Source of the DNA: a virus
Virus record (IMG/VR): IMGVR_UViG_3300029479_000004
Coordinates: 1-59,532 of that record
Strand: one strand, 5' to 3'
DNA length: 59,532 bases
Under the pieces are notes generated by a model that saw only the letters and a list, made by a program, of their open reading frames with translations, searched no databases and was not told where the DNA came from. A program made the translations under genes and the position numbers. Shown here piece by piece: positions 15,496 to 47,686 of the stretch (the first letter of the stretch is position 1; the number at the start of each line of letters is the position of its first letter).

Positions 15496-16335
15496 ATGAA
15501 AAAGAAGTTAAAATGTGAGATTTATCGAGATTCTATGCAGAATTACAAAAAGTATGCGATCCCTCCTGCACAACTTATTATTGCAGACGTTCCGTATAAT
15601 GTCGGGAACAATTTCTACGGCAGTAACCCTATGTGGTATAACGGTGGCGATAACAAGAATGGAGAAAGCAAACTTGCGAAAAAGGCGGCTTTCAATTCGG
15701 ATTTTAACTTTAACTTGTATGAATACTTCCATTTTTGTTCAAAGATGTTGAAAAAAGAGGACACAAAGCCTATTGCAAGGGGCAGAAGCAGTAATAGCCC
15801 TTGTATGATTGTGTTTTGTGCATTTGAGCAGTTGTCAACATTGATTGCGTCGGCGAAAAAACATGGATTCGTTAATTACATACCGCTTGTATTCTGTAAA
15901 AATTACAGTCCACAGGTACTTAAAGCTAATATGCGTATCGTAGGTGCTACGGAATATGCACTCGTACTGTACCGAAATAAGTTACCGAAATTCAGAAACG
16001 GCTTGCAGATTGATGAAAACGGAAAGAATATCAGAGGTACAGGACACATGATTTTCAATTGGTTTACTTGGGAGAAAGACGGAAAAGATATACCGAAGAT
16101 TCATCCAACGCAAAAGCCGGTAGCAGTCCTTAAAAAGCTGATTGAGATTTTTACAGACGAGGGAGACGTTATTATTGACCCTTGTTGCGGTAGCGGTAGC
16201 ACGCTAAGAGCCGCCGCAGAGCTTGGCAGAAGTGCATACGGATTCGAGATTGACAGAAACTTTTACGAGCGCGCAAAGAATGAAATGCTTGTATTTGAAA
16301 ATGATGAGCAAATGGATTTATCAGATTATATTTAA
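15496..16335 (+). CDS. beta-class DNA methyltransferase (N6-adenine/N4-cytosine type), orphan
   Basis: Motif IV-like IIADVPYN precedes motif I DPCCGSGST. PTQKPV segment present. No nearby restriction gene. Confidence 0.75.
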   Translation: MKKKLKCEIYRDSMQNYKKYAIPPAQLIIADVPYNVGNNFYGSNPMWYNGGDNKNGESKLAKKAAFNSDFNFNLYEYFHFCSKMLKKEDTKPIARGRSSNSPCMIVFCAFEQLSTLIASAKKHGFVNYIPLVFCKNYSPQVLKANMRIVGATEYALVLYRNKLPKFRNGLQIDENGKNIRGTGHMIFNWFTWEKDGKDIPKIHPTQKPVAVLKKLIEIFTDEGDVIIDPCCGSGSTLRAAAELGRSAYGFEIDRNFYERAKNEMLVFENDEQMDLSDYI

Positions 16336-23074: not shown

Positions 23075-23350
23075 CTAATCTGCTAAAATCTGTCTAGCCG
23101 TGTTAAATACATACAATCTGTTGTGGCTGTGCCGCTTAAAATCTCCGTTTTCAGTAATCACGCGCCCGCTATTTGGGTATTTGAGGCTTACAACGGTTAA
23201 ATACTTGTTTAAAAGTTCATCCGGGCATTTTAGGCATTCTATAGCGTTTTCTATGGTGCTTTTCTTGCTATTGCAATAAATTCCCTCAATGCGTACCCCT
23301 TTTTCTTTTTCCAGCTTGTCAAACTCTTTCAACAATTCTGCTTTTGTCAT
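23075..23350 (-). CDS. hypothetical protein
   Basis: Starts MTKAELLKEFDKLEKEKG with AAGGATGG 8 nt upstream. Confidence 0.5.
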   Translation of the reverse strand: MTKAELLKEFDKLEKEKGVRIEGIYCNSKKSTIENAIECLKCPDELLNKYLTVVSLKYPNSGRVITENGDFKRHSHNRLYVFNTARQILAD

Positions 23351-23369
23351 ATAATCAACCATCCTTTCA

Positions 23370-23516
23370 TTATTCAAAAATGAACCCGTAGCCGCTAGTC
23401 TGTGCGGCTCTCTGAAATTCTTCTTTTCCGTACTTTTGATACATCTTTTCAAGGTTCGCGGAAATGTCAAACCCTGCAAGTTTTAACTCAAACAGTATTT
23501 GTATTTTGTCGTCCAT
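23370..23516 (-). CDS. small hypothetical protein (48 aa)
   Basis: Read manually; RBS AAAGGGAAAAC. Confidence 0.35.
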   Translation of the reverse strand: MDDKIQILFELKLAGFDISANLEKMYQKYGKEEFQRAAQTSGYGFIFE

Positions 23517-23593
23517 GTTTTCCCTTTCTGGTCTGCCATCATCAGAGCCGGGAGACCATCCCGCGGCTGACGCTCCAGATCGGAGCGTTTCGG

Positions 23594-23731
23594 CTAATCA
23601 AGAAATTTTTCAATTTCTTCATCCGTCATATTTTCAACTTCCTTTCGTGCCGGTATTGGGTTCATTTCCATTTCCCCGACTAAATAAGCAAATGCAATGC
23701 TGGAAAGCATTGTTCTTTCTTCCCTGCTCAT
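23594..23731 (-). CDS. small hypothetical protein (45 aa)
   Basis: ATGA coupling to the upstream ORF. Read manually. Confidence 0.35.
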   Translation of the reverse strand: MSREERTMLSSIAFAYLVGEMEMNPIPARKEVENMTDEEIEKFLD

Positions 23732-24104: not shown

Positions 24105-24296
24105 ATGGACGAAAACACAAAAGCAGAAAAGAACAGGCAAGCGGTAAAGAAATGCATGAGTAATAAAGATAGAATAAACATTATATTACCGCTTGGAACA
24201 ATAGAAAGAATCAACTCATACGGATTAAAAACAAGCGCATTTGCTAGAGAATTGATTCTTGCAGAACTCGATAAAATGGATAGAATGAAAAAATAA
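24105..24296 (+). CDS. ribbon-helix-helix (CopG/Arc-like) regulator
   Basis: 63 aa. RINIILPLGTIERIN...SAFARELILAEL fits a beta-strand plus two helices. Confidence 0.6.
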   Translation: MDENTKAEKNRQAVKKCMSNKDRINIILPLGTIERINSYGLKTSAFARELILAELDKMDRMKK

Positions 24297-24390: not shown

Positions 24391-24771
24391 ATGATTAAAT
24401 GGAAAGCAACAAGCGTGAACGGACTTGTGGAATATGAGCAGGAAGCGGAAAGCTTCAAGGAGCTTTTTGATGAACTGGACGAAAGGGGAATAATTAGCGA
24501 TCCAGATTTTCCACTTTATGATACGGCACTCTTGGAAAAATACGGGAAATCATTTGATGATGCCGATTTTAAAGATGAGAGCGGCGAACTTGATTATGGG
24601 AAAGTTGATAATTTCTTAGATGGAAAAGAGTTATCCGATAAGGAATTATACGAATTAATATGCTCCCGGAATGGAGAAGCATATTATCAAAAATTTATGA
24701 GAGAAACCGAAAACGGCATCGTTGAAATCGGGGAATCAGATTTTGATAAAACCGGCAAATACAAATATTAA
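24391..24771 (+). CDS. highly acidic small protein, unknown function
   Basis: 126 aa rich in Asp/Glu. Driven by the duplicated promoter. Confidence 0.55.
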   Translation: MIKWKATSVNGLVEYEQEAESFKELFDELDERGIISDPDFPLYDTALLEKYGKSFDDADFKDESGELDYGKVDNFLDGKELSDKELYELICSRNGEAYYQKFMRETENGIVEIGESDFDKTGKYKY

Positions 24772-24936: not shown

Positions 24937-25224
24937 ATGAAAATTAACGGAATAGGGGTAGTAAAGAAACAGGATGCAATGAGCATCTTAACAAGAGAGG
25001 GAAGAAAAGCCGTAAAAACCGGATCGATTACAACTGAAGAACTTGGTCAGATGTACAAGTTAAGACAGATTGAGAAAGCTTCCAAAATCGGCAGTATGGG
25101 CGATACATTCCGGGAATCGTATAAGTGGATTCCGGACGATCTGAAAGAAGAGCTTACACCGGAACAGCTTGGAAAACTCGTAGATAGCTTTTATGAATGC
25201 TACGGAGCAGGAAAGAACGCATAA
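24937..25224 (+). CDS. hypothetical protein
   Basis: 95 aa with RBS AAAGGAGAA. Confidence 0.5.
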   Translation: MKINGIGVVKKQDAMSILTREGRKAVKTGSITTEELGQMYKLRQIEKASKIGSMGDTFRESYKWIPDDLKEELTPEQLGKLVDSFYECYGAGKNA

Positions 25225-25242: not shown

Positions 25243-25479
25243 ATGACAGCAAATGAGGTATTAAAAAATTTAAAGGCAATGATCGGAAAAGAAATGGATT
25301 TTGACGATGTTGTATGTGCGTTTGAAGATTTCGAGGAAGGTGGAGAAACAAGCGTATATGTGGGAGAGAGCAACAATAACGGATATGACTATATAGCATA
25401 TATTGACGCTCCGGAATCCACACAGTTTTTAATTAAAGTGAACCACGAGGACGTTATCGAAGACGTGTGGATGTTATAA
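25243..25479 (+). CDS. acidic small protein
   Basis: 78 aa with RBS AGAGAGGAAAA. Confidence 0.5.
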   Translation: MTANEVLKNLKAMIGKEMDFDDVVCAFEDFEEGGETSVYVGESNNNGYDYIAYIDAPESTQFLIKVNHEDVIEDVWML

Positions 25480-26018
25480 TGGGCGAATATATTCGTTATA
25501 ATGGAAGCCGTGTAAAAAACATAAAAGGACAGCATTTCGGGCATTTGATTCCGCAGAAAGTAGTGGGGATAAAAAATAAATATGCAGTTTGGGAATGTCT
25601 ATGTGAATTATGCGGTGGAACAAGAGAAGTTTCTGCAAAGCGTTTAAACTCCTGCAGTAACACAACAATGTGCGAAAAATGCAAAAAAGAAAGAGAGGAA
25701 AACAAAATGAAGAACTACAAAGAATACGAGAAAAGGTTTATAGGGTCAAGCGATATTGCGGCATTAATACTTGTCGGATGCGATGAAAACGGATTGAAAA
25801 CAAGCACTCTTGATTTTGGCGAAGATGGAAGCTACATGGCATACGTCGTTGACGAGGACGCGGAGATAGGTGCACATTATAAAAAAGTTGCTGATTTTAA
25901 GCACTGGCTCAAGATTTATGATGATGACGAATTGACATACCGGGTTAATGCACAGGAGATAAATATATATCGCGCTGGAGATTTTGGTTGTATCATACAG
26001 ACGATTGGCAAACATTAA
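25479..26018 (+). CDS. zinc-finger protein (possibly with an internal start at MKNYKEY)
   Basis: TAATG overlap. GQHFGHL...WECLCELCGG...CEKC pattern. Internal RBS AGAGAGGAAAACAAA. Confidence 0.45.
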   Translation: MGEYIRYNGSRVKNIKGQHFGHLIPQKVVGIKNKYAVWECLCELCGGTREVSAKRLNSCSNTTMCEKCKKEREENKMKNYKEYEKRFIGSSDIAALILVGCDENGLKTSTLDFGEDGSYMAYVVDEDAEIGAHYKKVADFKHWLKIYDDDELTYRVNAQEINIYRAGDFGCIIQTIGKH

Positions 26019-26081
26019 AAGAAATCGAGTGGGAAAGATTAAGAATCTGACCCACTCATTTTCATCACTGAGAATATAATT

Positions 26082-26147
26082 ATTTCAATCCGTGCATCCG
26101 GGGGAATTGCTCCAGATACCACGCGCAGAGCATCCACTGCACGCGAC
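26082..26147 (-). ncRNA. CRISPR-repeat-like structured RNA unit A
   Basis: Minus sense GTCGCGTGCAG-TGGATGCT-CTGCGCGTGG, a second hairpin, then CACGGATTGAAAT. Homologous to unit B with compensatory stem changes. Confidence 0.45.
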
Positions 26148-26192
26148 GCAAAAACATAAATTAAATGCTTTGCTTTTACTAAAAAGACTATT

Positions 26193-26257
26193 GTTTCAAT
26201 CCGTGGTCGCCGGGATCGCTGGCGGCACCACATCGGCAAGCATCCATGCCGTGTGAC
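26193..26257 (-). ncRNA. CRISPR-repeat-like structured RNA unit B
   Basis: Minus sense GTCACACGGCA-TGGATGCT-TGCCGATGTGG, a second hairpin, then CACGGATTGAAAC. Confidence 0.45.
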
Positions 26258-26457
26258 ATATCTATAGTCTATCATAAGATCGGGCAAAATGTAAGTAAAT
26301 ATTTAACAAAGGGCAACTTTTCTGGCTGCCTTTTCTTTTTGCCATGTCCAAAATCAACAACGCATCAGGGCATATCTTACAAAATCTCCGAAAAACCGTA
26401 AACAAACCATAAAACTTTTCTTAAATTTTTATAAACAATGATAGTTGTATTAGGTTC

Positions 26458-26487
26458 TTGACAAGTCCGAAAATGATAGAATAGTAT
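26458..26487 (+). promoter_or_regulatory. candidate promoter (TTGACA, extended -10 TGaTAGAAT)
   Basis: TTGACA at 26458..26463 and TGATAGAAT at 26474..26482. Spacing is non-canonical. Confidence 0.35.
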
Positions 26488-26501
26488 CAGTTTTTACAAA
26501 A

Positions 26502-26560
26502 AATCGTCTGACAATCGTCTGACATAAGGCGAAATAATCGTCTGACGTCGCTTTTTCAGA
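26502..26560. repeat. three AATCGTCTGAC iterons; the third extends to a 25-mer shared with the organizer gene
   Basis: Copies at 26502, 26513 and 26536. An AT-rich tract follows (26575..26640). Confidence 0.65.
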
Positions 26561-26774
26561 ACTATGTTCTCTTTCTCTATCTTTTTCTTAATCTTTTAAA
26601 TTAATAATAATATACTGTATCTAAAGCCTATAGGTTTATAGTAAGTGTATATCCGCATACGCGCGCGGCGTAAGTATATAATACCACCGTAAAAAATTAA
26701 GGCTTGACTTTAATCCCGGAAATAGTGTATACCAGAATCAAAGAGATTAAACAGAACGGAGGTGTGAATAGTAT

Positions 26775-27458
26775 ATGCAGGATATAAAGAGTGTAGAGAA
26801 TGTAGATCTTACAAGCCTTATAGTGGATCTAGGTACAGTACAGATATACACATCAACTGTACAAGATTTAATAGACAACGCTTGTATAGAATTCCACATC
26901 GAAGATTTGTTAAAAGCTGGACAGAGACAGTGGAAAGCTGTTATGCAGTATGTTGGTATGCATTTATTCCCGGATACAAAAGCATTAAAAGATAAGAGCT
27001 TAAGTCCTCTTGGTAATGCAACTATACCGACTAACTGCAATAGGTATGATAGAGAGGTATTATATAAGCTTTGTGATTATTATATATACATCTCCAATGT
27101 GTATAGCAAGTTGGTAAGTACGGTAGCATTTAGTTATTTTTGTAATATACCTACGAACACAATGGATATATGGGCTAGTGATGAACCAAGTTCGCTGACT
27201 TTCAAGATGTGGCAAAAATTGCAGCGATCCCGTAAGGATTGTATCCTAGATCGTGCATATGATTCCAATAGCCCTGTAGGCACCATGTTCGTGGGAAATA
27301 ATGAATTCGGCATGAATCAGCCCGGCATTGGCGATAATGCCACGCAACGCAAGGCAATCACAGCGCAGGAGCTGCCAAGATTGGACGAGAAAAAGAGTCA
27401 AGAATTGCACGCAATTGATACACAATTTACGGATGCAGCGGCAAATAATACGGTTTAA
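26775..27458 (+). CDS. terS: terminase small subunit (Terminase_2-like)
   Basis: NRYDREVLYKLCDYY..., FSYFCNIPTNTMDIW..., KLQRSRKDCIL... and GTMFVGNNEFGMNQ follow the TerS pattern. Judged by eye. Confidence 0.5.
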   Translation: MQDIKSVENVDLTSLIVDLGTVQIYTSTVQDLIDNACIEFHIEDLLKAGQRQWKAVMQYVGMHLFPDTKALKDKSLSPLGNATIPTNCNRYDREVLYKLCDYYIYISNVYSKLVSTVAFSYFCNIPTNTMDIWASDEPSSLTFKMWQKLQRSRKDCILDRAYDSNSPVGTMFVGNNEFGMNQPGIGDNATQRKAITAQELPRLDEKKSQELHAIDTQFTDAAANNTV

Positions 27459-29094: not shown

Positions 29095-29165
29095 TGGGCT
29101 ATCGCCAAGCGGTAAGGCACAGGATTTTGATTCCTGCATTCCGGGTTCGAATCCCGGTAGCCTAA
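29095..29165 (+). tRNA. tRNA-Gln (anticodon UUG)
   Basis: Full cloverleaf: U1-A72, anticodon loop TTTTGAT, T-arm CCGGG-TTCGAAT-CCCGG. Resembles bacterial tRNA-Gln as recalled from memory. Confidence 0.9.
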
Positions 29166-29392: not shown

Positions 29393-29464
29393 GGGGATTT
29401 AATTCAGTGGTAGAAGACACGGCTTATATCCGGGTTGTCGCGGGTTCGATTCCTGCAATCCCAA
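29393..29464 (+). tRNA. tRNA-Ile-like (anticodon UAU)
   Basis: Cloverleaf with loop CTTATAT and T-arm GCGGG-TTCGATT-CCTGC. Mismatches at 1-72, 10-25 and 28-42 lower the score. Confidence 0.55.
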
Positions 29465-29547
29465 CGATAGGTCTTGCGTATTCTTTAACAAGAGTATGCG
29501 AAGTGGATTATAAAAGAAACGCACAACAAACAGGCTGCGAGTAGGAA

Positions 29548-44119: not shown

Positions 44120-47100
44120 ATGGAATTAGAGTCTCTTGAAATAAAAATCCAAGCACAGGCACAACAGGCAAGCGGTCAGATAGATGCGCTTGTGACAAGA
44201 CTCGGGAGATTATCTTCCGCGCTTTCTGGGCTTAGTACCGGAAATCTGAATAGTCTTTCCACAGGGGTAAACCGACTTGCAGGGGCAATGACGGCAATGC
44301 GTGGAATTGACACACGGACTTTTTCTGCAGTGGCGAGAAATGTGAGCAAATTAGGCTCCATCAACAGCAGACAGATTAATGCTGCGGCTGGTTCTATGCG
44401 TCAGATTTCCAACGCGGTAAAAGGGCTTTCTGGAATGTCAGCATCTGTTAAGGGTCTGACCGAACTTGCATCTGCAATCAAACAGCTTGGCTACCAAAGT
44501 TCCACCAAGGCGATTGAAAATATACCGAAACTTGCTACGGCAATGCGACAGCTTATGTCTGAACTGTCGAAAGCTCCTAGCGTAAGCCGGAATATTATTG
44601 ACATGACAAACGCATTGGCAAAGTTATCACGTACTGGTGGAGCGGCAGGAACAGCGGCAAAAAGTATCACAAGCTCATTTAGCGGATTTAGTTCCGGTGC
44701 TTCTGCGGTTACCAAGAAGTCGTTCTCTCTTGCGTCTGCAATCGGAAAAGTGTATGCAACGTATTGGACTCTATTCCGAGGATTTAGGCTACTTGGAGAT
44801 GCTATTGATATATCATCCTCACTGACAGAGGTTGAGAACGTTGTAAGGCAGACATTCGGGCAGTATGAAAGCCTAATTAACAATTTCGCAAAAACATCAA
44901 TTGAAAAATTTGGTATGTCCGAATTGTCCGCGAAACAGTTTGCAAGCCGTTTCCAAGCCATGGGAACTGCCCTTGATATTCCACAGGGGAAAATGGCAGA
45001 TATGTCAATCCGGTTGACAGAATTAGCCGGAGATATGGCTTCATTCTATGATGTGAGTCAAGAAGATATTGCCAAGAGTCTGCAATCTGTATTTTCCGGT
45101 ACTACGGCACCTATGCGGCGTTATGGTATCGACTTGACACAGGCAACATTAAAGGAATGGGCATTAAAACAAGGACTTGATGCAAACATTTCCTCGATGA
45201 CGCAGGCTCAAAAAGCCATGTTGCGTTATCAGTATGTGCTTGCGCATACAACCAATATTACCGGAGATTTCGCACGTACAGCAGATACGTGGCATAACCA
45301 AATAACAATGCTTAAAGAGAATTTCAAAGCACTTGGAGCGGTTGTTGGTGGTGGTTTAATCAATGCATTTAAGCCGTTTATCAAGGTACTTAATGCAGTT
45401 CTGCAAAAGGTTATTTCTTTTGCGGAAATGGTAACAAATGCTTTAGGTTCAATCTTCGGATGGAAGTATGAAGCAAGCAAAGGGGCAGGAATCAGCGGTC
45501 TTGCTGATGATATTGGAAGCGCATCTGACGGCATGGACGATTTAAGTAATGCCGCAGGAAACGCAGGGAAAAACACGGGTGGTATCGCAAAAAATGCCAA
45601 GAAAGCAAAAAAGGAAATCCAACAGGCAACTCGTGCATTTGATGAATTGAAGGTTATTTCAAAACAGAGTAAAGACAAGGGTTCCGGTTCAGGGAATAAA
45701 GGTTCTGGTTCTGGATCTGGTTCTGGTGGCGCTGGTGGCGGCACCGGTGCTGATGGTGGTTTGGTTCAGACCGACACGATTTTTAAGAAATTCAAAAGCG
45801 ACATCAAAGACCTTGAAGGACTTGGAATTGAAATAAGAAAAGCCCTTGTAAAAGCCGTTGGTGGCATTGAATGGGATAAAATATATGCTAAAGCTTCCGG
45901 CTTCGGAACAGGACTCGCAGAGTTTCTTAATGGTTTGTTTTCAGAAGATAAAAAAGGAAATAGCGTATTTACTGCAACCGCAGATGTTATTGCGGGAGCG
46001 TTGAATACTGCAATATTTGCATCAAAAGGATTTACGGATAAATTTAAGTTTGAAACATTTGGCAATAACATAGCACATGGATTTAATCGCTTTTTCAAAA
46101 AATTCAAATGGAAAAAGTGCGCAGAAGCTATCAATGGATGGGTTGATGGTTTTTGGAAGTTTGTTCACGGCTTCTTTGATGATTTGAGTTGGAAAGATAT
46201 TTTTAATGGATTAAAAACATTCCTAACAAATTTAACACCAAAGAGTTTGGCTACAATTCTCATGTTTTCTGGTGGAAAACTTGCGCCTATAGTTTCATCT
46301 GCGCTTTGTTCTATACTAGGGTTTACAAGCGGAGGAAAAGGCGGAAAAGGTGGAAAGACTTTCAAACTCAACGGTCTTGGATTGGCGGCGTTTATTGCAA
46401 CTATAGGTTTTCAATTGTCTGAAAAAAAGACAGATTTTACATCCTCTGTTGTAGAAGCATTGGCGGCTGGTGGAGCGGCATTTTATATGTCAGGCGGAAA
46501 TCCGTATTTTGCGCTTGCCGGAGTAACGGTTTCGGTTGGAATTTCTCTTGGAAAGTTTTTTGTTGAAAAAAGTGATTCTATGAAGAAAGGAATTAAGAAA
46601 CTTAAAACTAACATTGACACAATGTTGGGTAAAACAACAACTACTACTGGATTAGACGGAAAAAAGACAACGATCAAAACACCTTTGAGCCAATTAGGAA
46701 AAGGAAAGGTGAAAAAAAATGCATATTCTGGAACAAAAGAAATGCGGGATAACTATTCAAAGATTGTTGCAAATCGTGAAAAAAATTATGGAAAGGGAAA
46801 GGTTTCTGTTACGGCGGAAATTACATCCGCATCGGACAAACTGTCCGCAAAAAATAAAAATTTAAAAGGTTTTACCGCTGATTTAGAAAAGAATAAAGAT
46901 AATATAGCGGCTAAAAATAAATCCTTAAAGAACTATACAGCTAACTTATCCAGCAATAAAGACGGGATTAAGCTGGGAGATAAATCTTTAAGCAATTATC
47001 TTGCAAATATATCCAAAAATAAGGACAAGATAAAGTCAAGTGATAAAACACTGGGAAATTACACGGCTAGTTTAACAGGAAACAAAGATAAAATACCTGA

Positions 47101-47686
47101 CAAATACAAGAGGGTAAGCAATTACACCGCGGAGCTTATTGCAAATAAGGACAAGATTAAAAGAAGTGATAAGACATTAGATCACTTTACAGGCACTCTG
47201 ACGAGGGTAACTGATAATATAAAGCCTGCAAACAAAAGACTTGGTGGATTCACTGCACTCATAACCTCTTTTGTGAACAGAATTAAAAATGCAGTATTAG
47301 ACTTCACGGCTAGACTTACAGGAAAGAGTACAAAGAAAGCTGATGGCGGCGTATTTTCCGGTGGAAGTTGGAAACCGATTAAGAAATACGCAGTCGGTGG
47401 ATTGCCAAACATGGGGCAGATGTTCGTTGCGAGAGAAGCGGGCCCGGAACTTGTCGGTACGCTTGGTGGTCATACGGCAGTTATGAATAACGATCAGATT
47501 GTTTCATCTGTTTCTTACGGAGTTGCACAGGCTGTAAAGGAAGTTATTCAGCCACTTTTAAAGACAAGTGTAGGCAATAATCGACCGATTCAGATTTCAC
47601 TTGACGGAAAAGTTATCTTTGATAGCACACGACAAAGCGCACAAGAGTATTTTAATCGCACCGGAATATCACCATTTCCGGTATAA
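44120..47686 (+). CDS. tape measure protein
   Basis: 1188 aa, helical with Gly-rich and hydrophobic segments. Canonical position. Confidence 0.85.
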   Translation: MELESLEIKIQAQAQQASGQIDALVTRLGRLSSALSGLSTGNLNSLSTGVNRLAGAMTAMRGIDTRTFSAVARNVSKLGSINSRQINAAAGSMRQISNAVKGLSGMSASVKGLTELASAIKQLGYQSSTKAIENIPKLATAMRQLMSELSKAPSVSRNIIDMTNALAKLSRTGGAAGTAAKSITSSFSGFSSGASAVTKKSFSLASAIGKVYATYWTLFRGFRLLGDAIDISSSLTEVENVVRQTFGQYESLINNFAKTSIEKFGMSELSAKQFASRFQAMGTALDIPQGKMADMSIRLTELAGDMASFYDVSQEDIAKSLQSVFSGTTAPMRRYGIDLTQATLKEWALKQGLDANISSMTQAQKAMLRYQYVLAHTTNITGDFARTADTWHNQITMLKENFKALGAVVGGGLINAFKPFIKVLNAVLQKVISFAEMVTNALGSIFGWKYEASKGAGISGLADDIGSASDGMDDLSNAAGNAGKNTGGIAKNAKKAKKEIQQATRAFDELKVISKQSKDKGSGSGNKGSGSGSGSGGAGGGTGADGGLVQTDTIFKKFKSDIKDLEGLGIEIRKALVKAVGGIEWDKIYAKASGFGTGLAEFLNGLFSEDKKGNSVFTATADVIAGALNTAIFASKGFTDKFKFETFGNNIAHGFNRFFKKFKWKKCAEAINGWVDGFWKFVHGFFDDLSWKDIFNGLKTFLTNLTPKSLATILMFSGGKLAPIVSSALCSILGFTSGGKGGKGGKTFKLNGLGLAAFIATIGFQLSEKKTDFTSSVVEALAAGGAAFYMSGGNPYFALAGVTVSVGISLGKFFVEKSDSMKKGIKKLKTNIDTMLGKTTTTTGLDGKKTTIKTPLSQLGKGKVKKNAYSGTKEMRDNYSKIVANREKNYGKGKVSVTAEITSASDKLSAKNKNLKGFTADLEKNKDNIAAKNKSLKNYTANLSSNKDGIKLGDKSLSNYLANISKNKDKIKSSDKTLGNYTASLTGNKDKIPDKYKRVSNYTAELIANKDKIKRSDKTLDHFTGTLTRVTDNIKPANKRLGGFTALITSFVNRIKNAVLDFTARLTGKSTKKADGGVFSGGSWKPIKKYAVGGLPNMGQMFVAREAGPELVGTLGGHTAVMNNDQIVSSVSYGVAQAVKEVIQPLLKTSVGNNRPIQISLDGKVIFDSTRQSAQEYFNRTGISPFPV
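46847..47287 (+). repeat. seven tandem 63-bp (21-aa) repeats inside the tape measure gene
   Basis: Units such as SDKTLGNYTASLTGNKDKIPD, KYKRVSNYTAELIANKDKIKR and GDKSLSNYLANISKNKDKIKS. Confidence 0.7.

Follow-up and report, generated by a model that had tools for sequence, protein, structure and literature searches.

A family of two-hairpin phage RNAs with ends resembling type I-C CRISPR repeats, and its possible role as an RNA anti-CRISPR

Organization of the RNA locus

The viral sequence IMGVR_UViG_3300029479_000004 (IMG/VR; 59,532 nt, analyzed over its full length and referred to here as the window) is that of a temperate siphovirus-like phage which harbors two related, structured RNA units on its minus strand. 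These lie in a 750-bp intergenic gap (26019-26774), flanked by the convergent open reading frame (ORF) 25467-26018 and the divergent ORF 26775-27458. An earlier reading made from the sequence alone (the sequence-only reading) had placed two homologous units separated by a 45-nt AT-rich linker in this gap; the coordinates and sequences that it gave were reproduced here, with the single amendment that unit A comprises 66 nt rather than 65. The locus is presumed to represent a small non-coding RNA gene of a temperate phage, from which a leftward transcript of approximately 240 nt, containing two 65-nt modules, would be produced. Its components are listed below in the predicted direction of transcription.

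26271..26299, minus strand: sigma-70-like promoter (TTTACT, 17 nt, TATGAT), with a scan score of 9/12, kept in close relatives
26193..26257, minus strand: unit B, 65 nt, matched by the covariance model; GUCAC, hairpin 1 with loop UGGAUGCU, hairpin 2 with loop AGCGAUCC, and tail CACGGAUUGAAAC; full sequence (26257..26193) GUCACACGGCAUGGAUGCUUGCCGAUGUGGUGCCGCCAGCGAUCCCGGCGACCACGGAUUGAAAC
26148..26192, minus strand: AT-rich inter-unit linker, 45 nt, with the inner hairpin AAAGCAU/AUGUUUU (fold prediction and relatives)
26082..26147, minus strand: unit A, 66 nt, matched by the covariance model; GUCGC, hairpin 1 with loop UGGAUGCU, hairpin 2 with loop AGCAAUUCCC, and tail CACGGAUUGAAAU; full sequence (26147..26082) GUCGCGUGCAGUGGAUGCUCUGCGCGUGGUAUCUGGAGCAAUUCCCCCGGAUGCACGGAUUGAAAU
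26058..26081, minus strand: AT-rich 3' linker, 24 nt (AAUUAUAUUCUCAGUGAUGAAAAU), spacer-like by position and homologous to the linkers after other units
26017..26057, minus strand: terminator hairpin (GAGUGGG...CCCACUC) with a U-rich run, recognized as an inverted repeat and present in the fold of the whole transcript

The same arrangement of transcription signals was evident among relatives of the window. A promoter scoring 9 to 12 out of 12 precedes the first unit in more than 10 diverged lineages, its -10 element ending 6 to 8 nt ahead of GUC (13 nt before GTC in the lineage of the window), and a promoter scan across lineages found none ahead of internal units. Downstream of each unit come an AT-rich linker and a hairpin, the latter being small and weak between units, and strong and accompanied by a U-run after the last unit in every lineage inspected. 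In the window, the terminator hairpin is long and is followed by GAUUUCUUUU; it is probably bidirectional, serving the convergent ORF 25467-26018 also. Just upstream of the unit promoter, a further GC hairpin with a T-run (GGCAGCCAGAAAAGTTGCC CTTTGTT; 26312-26330, minus strand) is kept in relatives, and could shield the RNA gene from leftward transcription arriving from upstream, or else terminate a different small transcript.

Structure and covariation of the units

Units A and B share 62.7% identity overall, yet this identity is distributed unevenly, with 29 of 35 unpaired columns being identical as opposed to 13 of 32 paired columns. Conservation thus lies in the loops and tail and not in the stems, as described in the sequence-only reading, which had proposed compensatory changes in the first stem. 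Folding of the single sequences was not decisive in this respect, returning a z-score of -2.8 for unit A (for which the minimum free energy structure corresponds to the two hairpins) and of -0.3 for unit B; covariation across relatives, on the other hand, is decisive. When 42 distinct units were aligned with MAFFT, 94.8% of cells were paired under the two-hairpin structure, compared to 29 to 48% when the partners are slid, with changes on both sides at 13 of the 16 pairs and up to six pair types per position, and RNAalifold independently yields the identical two hairpins. Taken over the analyses of the family, paired cells amount to 95 to 97%, versus 28 to 50% in the slid controls. Furthermore, G-U pairs occupy 85 of the 799 stem cells (about a tenth), where the opposite strand would have A-C mismatches, and consequently only the strand reading GUC...GAUUGAAA fits. 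Within hairpin 1, C3-G34, G/A4-U/C32, and C5-G31 are covarying pairs, leaving a single G only after the stem. The unit is a structured RNA element and not a coding sequence; the second hairpin that had been suspected between the repeat-like hairpin and the handle-like tail is covariation-supported, and the suggestion that selection acts on RNA structure rather than on coding is borne out both by this covariation and by the 82-aa ORF across the region, which is not kept in relatives.

The loops of the two hairpins are near-invariant, that of hairpin 1 reading (U)GGAUGC(U) and that of hairpin 2 AGC-R-A-U-(U)-CC, and are complementary to one another (GCU with AGC, and GGA(U) with (A)UCC). Across 50 distinct units, the loop-loop pair at columns 19 and 45 is never broken, being CG in 44 units, UA in 4, GC in 1, and UG in 1. 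The loop variants, which were recovered through targeted loop-variant scans, from one GenBank contig, and from locus L131, include GUU with AAC in two separate lineages (units 1 and 3 of L131, and L196 with the L211 group), GGU with ACC in L215, and GUU with AGC, involving a G-U wobble, in L081. No family member was among the 15 stretches retrieved by a scan for C19 opposite any partner other than G. Based on this one covarying pair, with at least three independent changes, we conclude that the unit has kissing loops and a compact pseudoknotted fold, for which the evidence is good but not exhaustive. Complementarity also exists between loop 2 (CGAUCC or CAAUUCC) and the beginning of the tail, GGAUUG, for example at 26213-26220 versus 26197-26202 of the window. 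The loop 1-loop 2 and loop 2-tail pairings are mutually exclusive, and covariation backs the loop-loop pairing only; the loop 2-tail pairing may represent an alternative or switching conformation.

Distribution and operon structure of the family

Relatives were first retrieved from IMG/VR by means of a gapped pattern of the conserved loop and tail, which yielded many contigs, about 50 of which carry units with quite different stems. The covariance model built from the alignment of these relatives (42 distinct units) identified unit B (80.1 bits, E 3e-24) and unit A (79.5 bits, E 5e-24) in the 59.5-kb window, where all other scores were at most 13 bits. The family comprises at least 84 units in 48 related viral loci, more units being present in loci fetched later, and these are organized in operons of one, two, or three units, with up to five units per locus: locus L013, for instance, harbors two single-unit operons, and L131 a two-unit and a three-unit operon. 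The gaps between units measure 33 to 35 nt in L131, L022, L058, and L039, and 44 to 45 nt in the lineage of the window. L131 (positions 142-728) corresponds to the contig CAVBUH010000111.1 of a Selenomonadaceae metagenome-assembled genome, whose five units in two operons (2 + 3) represent the most array-like arrangement seen. Application of the unit pattern to 185,579 species genomes returned 15 stretches, among which the single family member was located on this 7-kb contig, which may be a mis-binned phage fragment; no cas-adjacent (CreR-like) copy of the unit was found in the same genomes.

A comparison with Rfam, which had been suggested alongside the sequence-only reading as a check, gave no family that covers either unit in Rfam 15 (whole window at the gathering threshold; 25900-26800 at E values of up to 10). 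ALIL alone overlaps them (26114-26242; 10.7 bits and E 4.8, against a gathering score of 50), taking in parts of both units at chance level. The unit sequence strings were not found in the literature searched. A weak model match (13 bits, E 0.077) was observed at 25745-25800 on the plus strand, within ORF 25467-26018, where the stretch GTCAAGCG...TCGGATGCGATGAAAACGGATTGAAAA holds GTC, GGATGC, and an exact ACGGATTGAAA in unit order; this stretch, which lies on the opposite strand and is coding, recurs at the equal place in relatives and may be a relic, a chance match, or a functional echo.

Resemblance to type I-C CRISPR repeats

The columns conserved in at least 90% of the 50 distinct units read GTC...GGATG.T...GG...AGC.AT.CC...C..GGATTGAAA, of which GTC, GG, and C..GGATTGAAA coincide exactly with the termini of type I-C CRISPR repeats in the literature. 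The latter follow the scheme GTCGC/GTCAC-stem-GCG/GTG-TGGATTGAAAT, as represented by the type I-C repeats of B. halodurans (GTCGCACTCTTCATGGGTGCGTGGATTGAAAT) and Bifidobacterium (GTCGCTCTCCTCATGGAGAGCGTGGATTGAAAT, with the variants GTCAC...GTGTGGATTGAAAT and ...GTGCGGATTGAAAT) and by a published repeat of I-C form from the Lachnospiraceae member Roseburia hominis (GTCGCTCCCTGTGAGGGGAGCGTGGATTGAAAT). The unpaired ends of the units, GUC(G/A)C and (C)ACGGAUUGAAAY, agree with these documented repeats, the first five and the last ten nucleotides of the repeat being retained, and C3, G/A4, and C5, which pair with G, U/C, and G, covary with these partners in the same manner as GTCGC/GCG and GTCAC/GTG of natural repeats. 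The I-C likeness proposed in the sequence-only reading accordingly holds for the termini, whereas the GCGTGG which had been read as following the hairpin lies mostly inside hairpin 1. It should be noted that GGATTGAAA alone is unremarkable in the window (3 matches versus 1.6 expected), and that significance is derived from the whole unit and the family rather than from this string alone.

Natural metagenome arrays whose repeats end in CACGGATTGAAAC, with 14 to 34 copies and with cas1 beside one of them, indicate that the tail variant is a real handle variant. A metagenome scan for canonical arrays ending in ACGGATTGAAA yielded real arrays, one of them beside cas1, with stems which are unrelated to those of the units. 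A canonical host repeat with a GGATGC loop was also sought, and 0 of 61 IMG/VR matches to GGATGC-N6-16-GTGGATTGAAA proved to be a repeat.

Cleavage by Cas5c yields a 5' handle of 11 nt and a 3' hairpin of 21 nt, and its recognition involves the stem base and the 3' overhang (U22-G23-G24 in B. halodurans) rather than the loop or 5' overhang (PMC8524198). The 12 nucleotides after hairpin 2, A-C-G-G-A-U-U-G-A-A-A-Y, reproduce the natural geometry, with C in place of U at the first position past the cut site; hairpin 1 retains the repeat's 5' end together with its basal pairs. Hairpin 2 with its 12-nt tail, coupled with hairpin 1 and its repeat 5' end, gives the unit the appearance of an I-C repeat with a doubled hairpin.

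In common with a type I-C repeat and its precursor CRISPR RNA (pre-crRNA), the 5' GUC(G/A)C and its complement form the basal hairpin pairs, the 3' GGAUUGAAA(U/C) is identical to the 5' handle of the crRNA, approximately 12 nt of single strand follow the stem, and the spacing in some relatives amounts to 33 to 35 nt. In contrast to such a repeat, the unit has an extra hairpin, its hairpin 1 consists of 9 bp and an 8-nt loop rather than 6 to 7 bp and a 3- to 5-nt loop, and its tail begins with A-C in place of U after the stem. A contiguous, near-full-length repeat match is not present, as the repeat-like parts lie approximately 55 nt apart with the second hairpin between them. The locus is, moreover, devoid of cas genes, a leader, and variable spacers; no Cas domain was found in the 30 window ORFs scanned, in agreement with the sequence-only reading, which had reported no cas genes.

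Proposed function and mechanism

RNA anti-CRISPRs are a recent addition to known counter-defenses and have so far been plain repeat copies (Racr) or degenerate crRNAs (Cracr), found via contiguous repeat matches. Racrs are solitary repeat copies behind a promoter which compete for Cas6 or Cas7 and form aberrant complexes; among these, RacrIF1 diverts Cas subunits into dead-end complexes, thereby depleting crRNA ribonucleoproteins (crRNPs), and RacrIC1 of a Bifidobacterium prophage inhibits type I-C (PMC10651486). The element described here would be a variant of the Racr/Cracr kind; it is found neither in Rfam nor in the literature searched, and its design is more complex than that of RNA anti-CRISPRs reported to date. 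We propose, with confidence that we would place at about even, that it may function as a structured, repeat-derived RNA anti-CRISPR, acting as a decoy against type I-C, which is one of the commonest CRISPR types. The promoter-driven, intergenic, and phage-borne setting fits the RNA anti-CRISPR idea. The sequence-only reading was right in kind in this regard and wrong on its mini-array option, and the family, the one-to-three-unit operons, the loop-loop tertiary pair, and the nearby probable anti-CRISPR (acr) gene extend beyond it.

The units share with Racrs a phage- or prophage-encoded, intergenic position directly behind their own promoter with no cas genes nearby, the copying of the defining ends of the repeat of one subtype (I-C), and an expected action through competition for crRNA-binding Cas subunits. 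Proximity to an anti-CRISPR protein gene may be a further common trait, the neighboring gene being a probable acr of the AcrIIA15 (Cas9-inhibiting) kind. The repeat elements that are read by Cas proteins, namely the hairpin base and the handle, are kept in the 50 distinct units, as they are in Racrs and solitary repeat units (SRUs). The units differ from Racrs in that they are not contiguous repeat copies and extend over 65 nt, whereas the I-C units tabulated in the Racr study are of canonical length only, at approximately 29 to 37 nt (PMC10651486). They also possess two hairpins with near-invariant, mutually pairing loops, they are not confined to solitary copies (operons contain one to three, a locus may have up to five, and in the window two are located 45 nt apart), and they would be missed by a repeat-BLAST pipeline that needs full-length matches.

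In the proposed mechanism, each module would derive from a type I-C CRISPR repeat, of which it would retain the 5' end (GUC(G/A)C and the basal hairpin pairs) and, on the 3' side, the sequence from which the 5' handle of the crRNA is made, (C)ACGGAUUGAAAY. Two hairpins would take the place of one, their invariant loops pairing (GGAUGCU with AGCRAU(U)CC) to form the compact pseudoknot. The host is presumed to encode a type I-C system, and the RNA, if expressed in excess, would be bound by host Cas5c, which is responsible for type I-C crRNA processing and handle binding, and possibly by Cas7, with hairpin 2 and the 12-nt tail mimicking the geometry of stem base plus handle that is read by Cas5c. 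Cas subunits would be diverted into dead-end complexes and phage-targeting crRNPs depleted, analogous to the action of RacrIF1. The extra hairpin and the loop-loop contact may render the decoy harder to process or release, and the differing stems within one operon may confer a wider range.

Several observations weigh against this proposal. The tail opens with A-C-G-G after hairpin 2, where natural repeats have U-G-G, and U22 is important for cleavage by B. halodurans Cas5c (PMC8524198). Published Racrs are simple repeat copies (PMC10651486). Hairpin 1 is followed by G-U only, and its stems are unlike those of any natural repeat seen. The neighboring probable Acr is of the Cas9 (II-A) kind and not I-C, an assignment which is itself modest (E of approximately 1e-3), and a pure decoy does not account for the regular 33- to 35-nt intervals at which units follow one another in some relatives. 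The conserved second hairpin and kissing loops could reflect another partner, such as a phage or host RNA-binding protein, and we know of nothing that requires either a second hairpin or invariant kissing loops.

A more tentative proposal, which we consider less likely than not, regards the family as a distinct, evolution-engineered class of anti-CRISPR RNA whose activity would reside in its three-dimensional shape and not in plain repeat mimicry. The fold would offer an I-C repeat base and handle to Cas5c, and would either block cleavage or keep both cleavage products together through the loop-loop helix, such that Cas5c, and Cascade assembly with it, would be caught in a dead-end complex. 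The stem-diverse, crRNA-spaced operons would then cover several host variants or load Cas7 filaments; in a bolder extension, the module may self-process and supply the Cascade of the host with guide-like RNAs.

The family shows that a repeat-derived RNA which contiguous-match searches overlook is carried by phages of Firmicutes abundant in the human gut, and the conserved tertiary fold must matter for how the RNA meets its partner. Should it inhibit type I-C, the element would represent a structural trick for trapping Cas5c or Cascade and a compact genetic off-switch for type I-C tools, and would extend the search space for RNA counter-defense to split or embellished repeat mimics. The family offers a clean and testable RNA structure, consisting of two helices and one covarying loop-loop pair.

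Alternative explanations

Cracrs consist of a repeat-like element, a partial-match guide, and a terminator, sometimes in arrays, and recruit the host effector to repress its own genes (bioRxiv 10.1101/2024.10.29.618823). Were the present locus to act in this manner, which we consider unlikely, if a prospect to be taken seriously, each unit would give a Cas5c-processable handle, and the downstream AT-rich sequence (45 nt after unit B; 24 nt and the terminator after unit A) would guide I-C Cascade to repress the promoter of cas genes or of a CRISPR-guarding toxin. The layout, in which a repeat-like element is followed by a spacer-like stretch and then by a terminator or the next repeat-like element, all behind a dedicated promoter, is as described for CracrVA1, and multiplexed phage arrays, including two-spacer I-C Cracr arrays, are also known (bioRxiv 10.1101/2024.10.29.618823). 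The gaps of 33 to 35 nt in L131, L022, L058, and L039 are consistent with this reading, the crRNA spacer of S. mutans type I-C being 33 nt (PMC8524198), and the 5' parts of the linkers (AAUAGUCUUUUUAG.. and AAUUAUAUUCUCAG..) are alike between units (AAUAGCAUUU..). However, this similarity is accounted for by duplication of the unit together with its flank, the most conserved linker positions are not proximal to a protospacer adjacent motif (PAM), and the gap in the window is 45 nt. The spacer-like stretches have no known target, be it a promoter or a CreA/CreR spacer, and neither a match to PAM plus seed (TTC-flanked) nor a self-target was found for the linkers within the window. In addition, the linkers are structured, holding a hairpin that would be unusual for a guide, and the repeat-like element is double-sized and pseudoknotted, its second hairpin and kissing loops being left unaccounted for.

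A repeat-derived RNA may, alternatively, have been exapted for a role outside CRISPR, either as a scaffold or decoy for an RNA-binding protein, for example the product of the neighboring 95-aa gene described below, or as a small RNA switch of lysis-lysogeny or late genes. The invariant loops and the tertiary pair exceed the needs of repeat mimicry, one small protein gene adjoins the RNA in most diverged lineages inspected, and the locus is positioned where the accessory genes give way to the late operon, all of which would suit such a role. The elements that have been retained are, nevertheless, those of an I-C repeat that are read by Cas5c, and GGAUUGAAAY would not be expected to stay near-invariant in 50 distinct units once a CRISPR function was lost; the model of the 95-aa protein, furthermore, has neither an RNA-binding fold nor a PDB match. 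We regard exaptation as rather improbable.

It is very doubtful that the unit is a small self-cleaving RNA, whose kissing-loop fold would cleave near CAC/GG and free the handle and linker RNA without Cas5c. The compact fold, the invariant unpaired nucleotides, and the loop-loop contact are reminiscent of small ribozymes, and a hammerhead ribozyme is encoded 2.5 kb away in the same phage, but this reading is pure analogy, with no Rfam ribozyme family match at E values of up to 10 and no catalytic-core motif recognized.

The sequence-only reading had also entertained a mini-array. In a true phage mini-CRISPR array, the 45-nt insert would be a spacer against a competing phage or plasmid, and this option is close to refuted. 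Viral mini-arrays are known (PMC10651486), and they share with the present locus two repeat-like elements flanking a short insert in a virus without cas genes. The units of the window are, however, 65 to 66 nt in length and only 63% identical to one another, differing at 37% of positions, rather than being near-identical repeats of canonical length. The insert, unlike that of a mini-array, is conserved among relatives and has no detectable target: it folds into a hairpin and shares its layout, with an AT-rich 5' part and a small hairpin, with the linkers after other units, and single-unit relatives are without it. The proposed search for its origin in other phages returned chance-level matches only (best E of at least 0.8 among 50,697 GenBank phage records), and in IMG/VR its 27-nt core is confined to the homologous locus of relatives.

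Coding by the 82-aa minus-strand ORF 26039..26287, which spans the region, or a DNA-level site such as pac, ori, or att, in a locus that adjoins the late operon, can be set aside, given that the region measures 240 to 252 nt in 16 close relatives with length differences that are not multiples of 3, that several of these contain stops in every sense frame, that substitutions preserve base pairs and not codons, and that the G-U pairs together with the oriented promoter and terminator argue for RNA.

Phage, host, and neighboring genes

The ORFs of the window include those specifying a replisome organizer, DnaB, an N6 methylase, an integrase, TerL, an SPP1-type portal, a major capsid protein, a tail fiber, and an antirepressor; the large ORF 44120-47686 gave no informative Pfam match. 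The nearest cultured relative according to TerL is Clostridium phage Maintenon (38% identity). A near-identical prophage with both units was found in human-gut contigs of 382 kb, from ERZ918512, and 157 kb, and the galE gene beside this prophage copy is 90 to 93% identical to named Lachnospiraceae sequences. Based on this prophage junction and its galE neighbor, the host is a probable member of the Lachnospiraceae, and a GalE cluster comparison resolved nothing finer than this family.

The units close an island of small genes without known function. Two genes of this island are of particular relevance.

24391..24771, plus strand: acidic 126-aa protein, probable homolog of the C-terminal Cas9-inhibiting domain of AcrIIA15 (phmmer, Foldseek)
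24937..25224, plus strand: conserved 95-aa protein, function not recognized (synteny)

The first of these, ORF 24391-24771, is located 1.3 kb from the units and is a probable AcrIIA15-like gene. Its product was matched by phmmer against the PDB with an E value of 0.0036, a match which was lost when residues 20 to 34 (a short PPR-like stretch) were masked, and the assignment consequently relies mainly on the fold match: the AlphaFold2 model (pLDDT, the predicted local distance difference test score, 79) returned 8jft_C as the best Foldseek match (E 7.4e-4, prob 1.0, TM 0.59/0.67). Just upstream, the 63-aa ORF 24105-24296 (phrog_31631) appears ribbon-helix-helix-like by eye and is a possible anti-CRISPR-associated (Aca) protein, which would make the two genes a candidate acr-aca pair.

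The 95-aa gene is directly convergent with the units in most of the diverged lineages inspected (L013, L039, L066, L119, L131, L196, and L211). Sequence comparison of its product with Pfam, PHROG, and the PDB returned no match, nor did a fold comparison. A homolog with 35% identity is encoded by Bifidobacterium phage BigBern1, which, approximately 570 bp from this gene, harbors a canonical-length solitary I-C-like repeat (GTCTCCCCGCGAGGGGAGTGGATTGAAAT) followed by a terminator (MT006237.1, approximately 15606-15634; L197 3252-3280, minus strand). This apparently unannotated repeat is likely an ordinary Racr candidate, such that a comparable neighborhood in a distant phage would hold an ordinary repeat mimic.

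Additional features were observed on either side of the RNA gene. Upstream of the 227-aa ORF 26775-27458, three direct AATCGTCTGAC copies (26498-26546 and 26458-26487, plus strand) are situated directly downstream of a TTGACA promoter-like site, and look like operator sites of the rightward, perhaps late, operon. In the accessory region, the minus-strand ORF 23479..23075 has immediately on its 5' side a type II hammerhead ribozyme (23527-23595, minus strand; Rfam RF02276, 66.9 bits versus a gathering score of 37). The phage also carries genes for tRNA-Gln(UUG) at 29095-29165 and tRNA-Ile(UAU) at 29393-29465.

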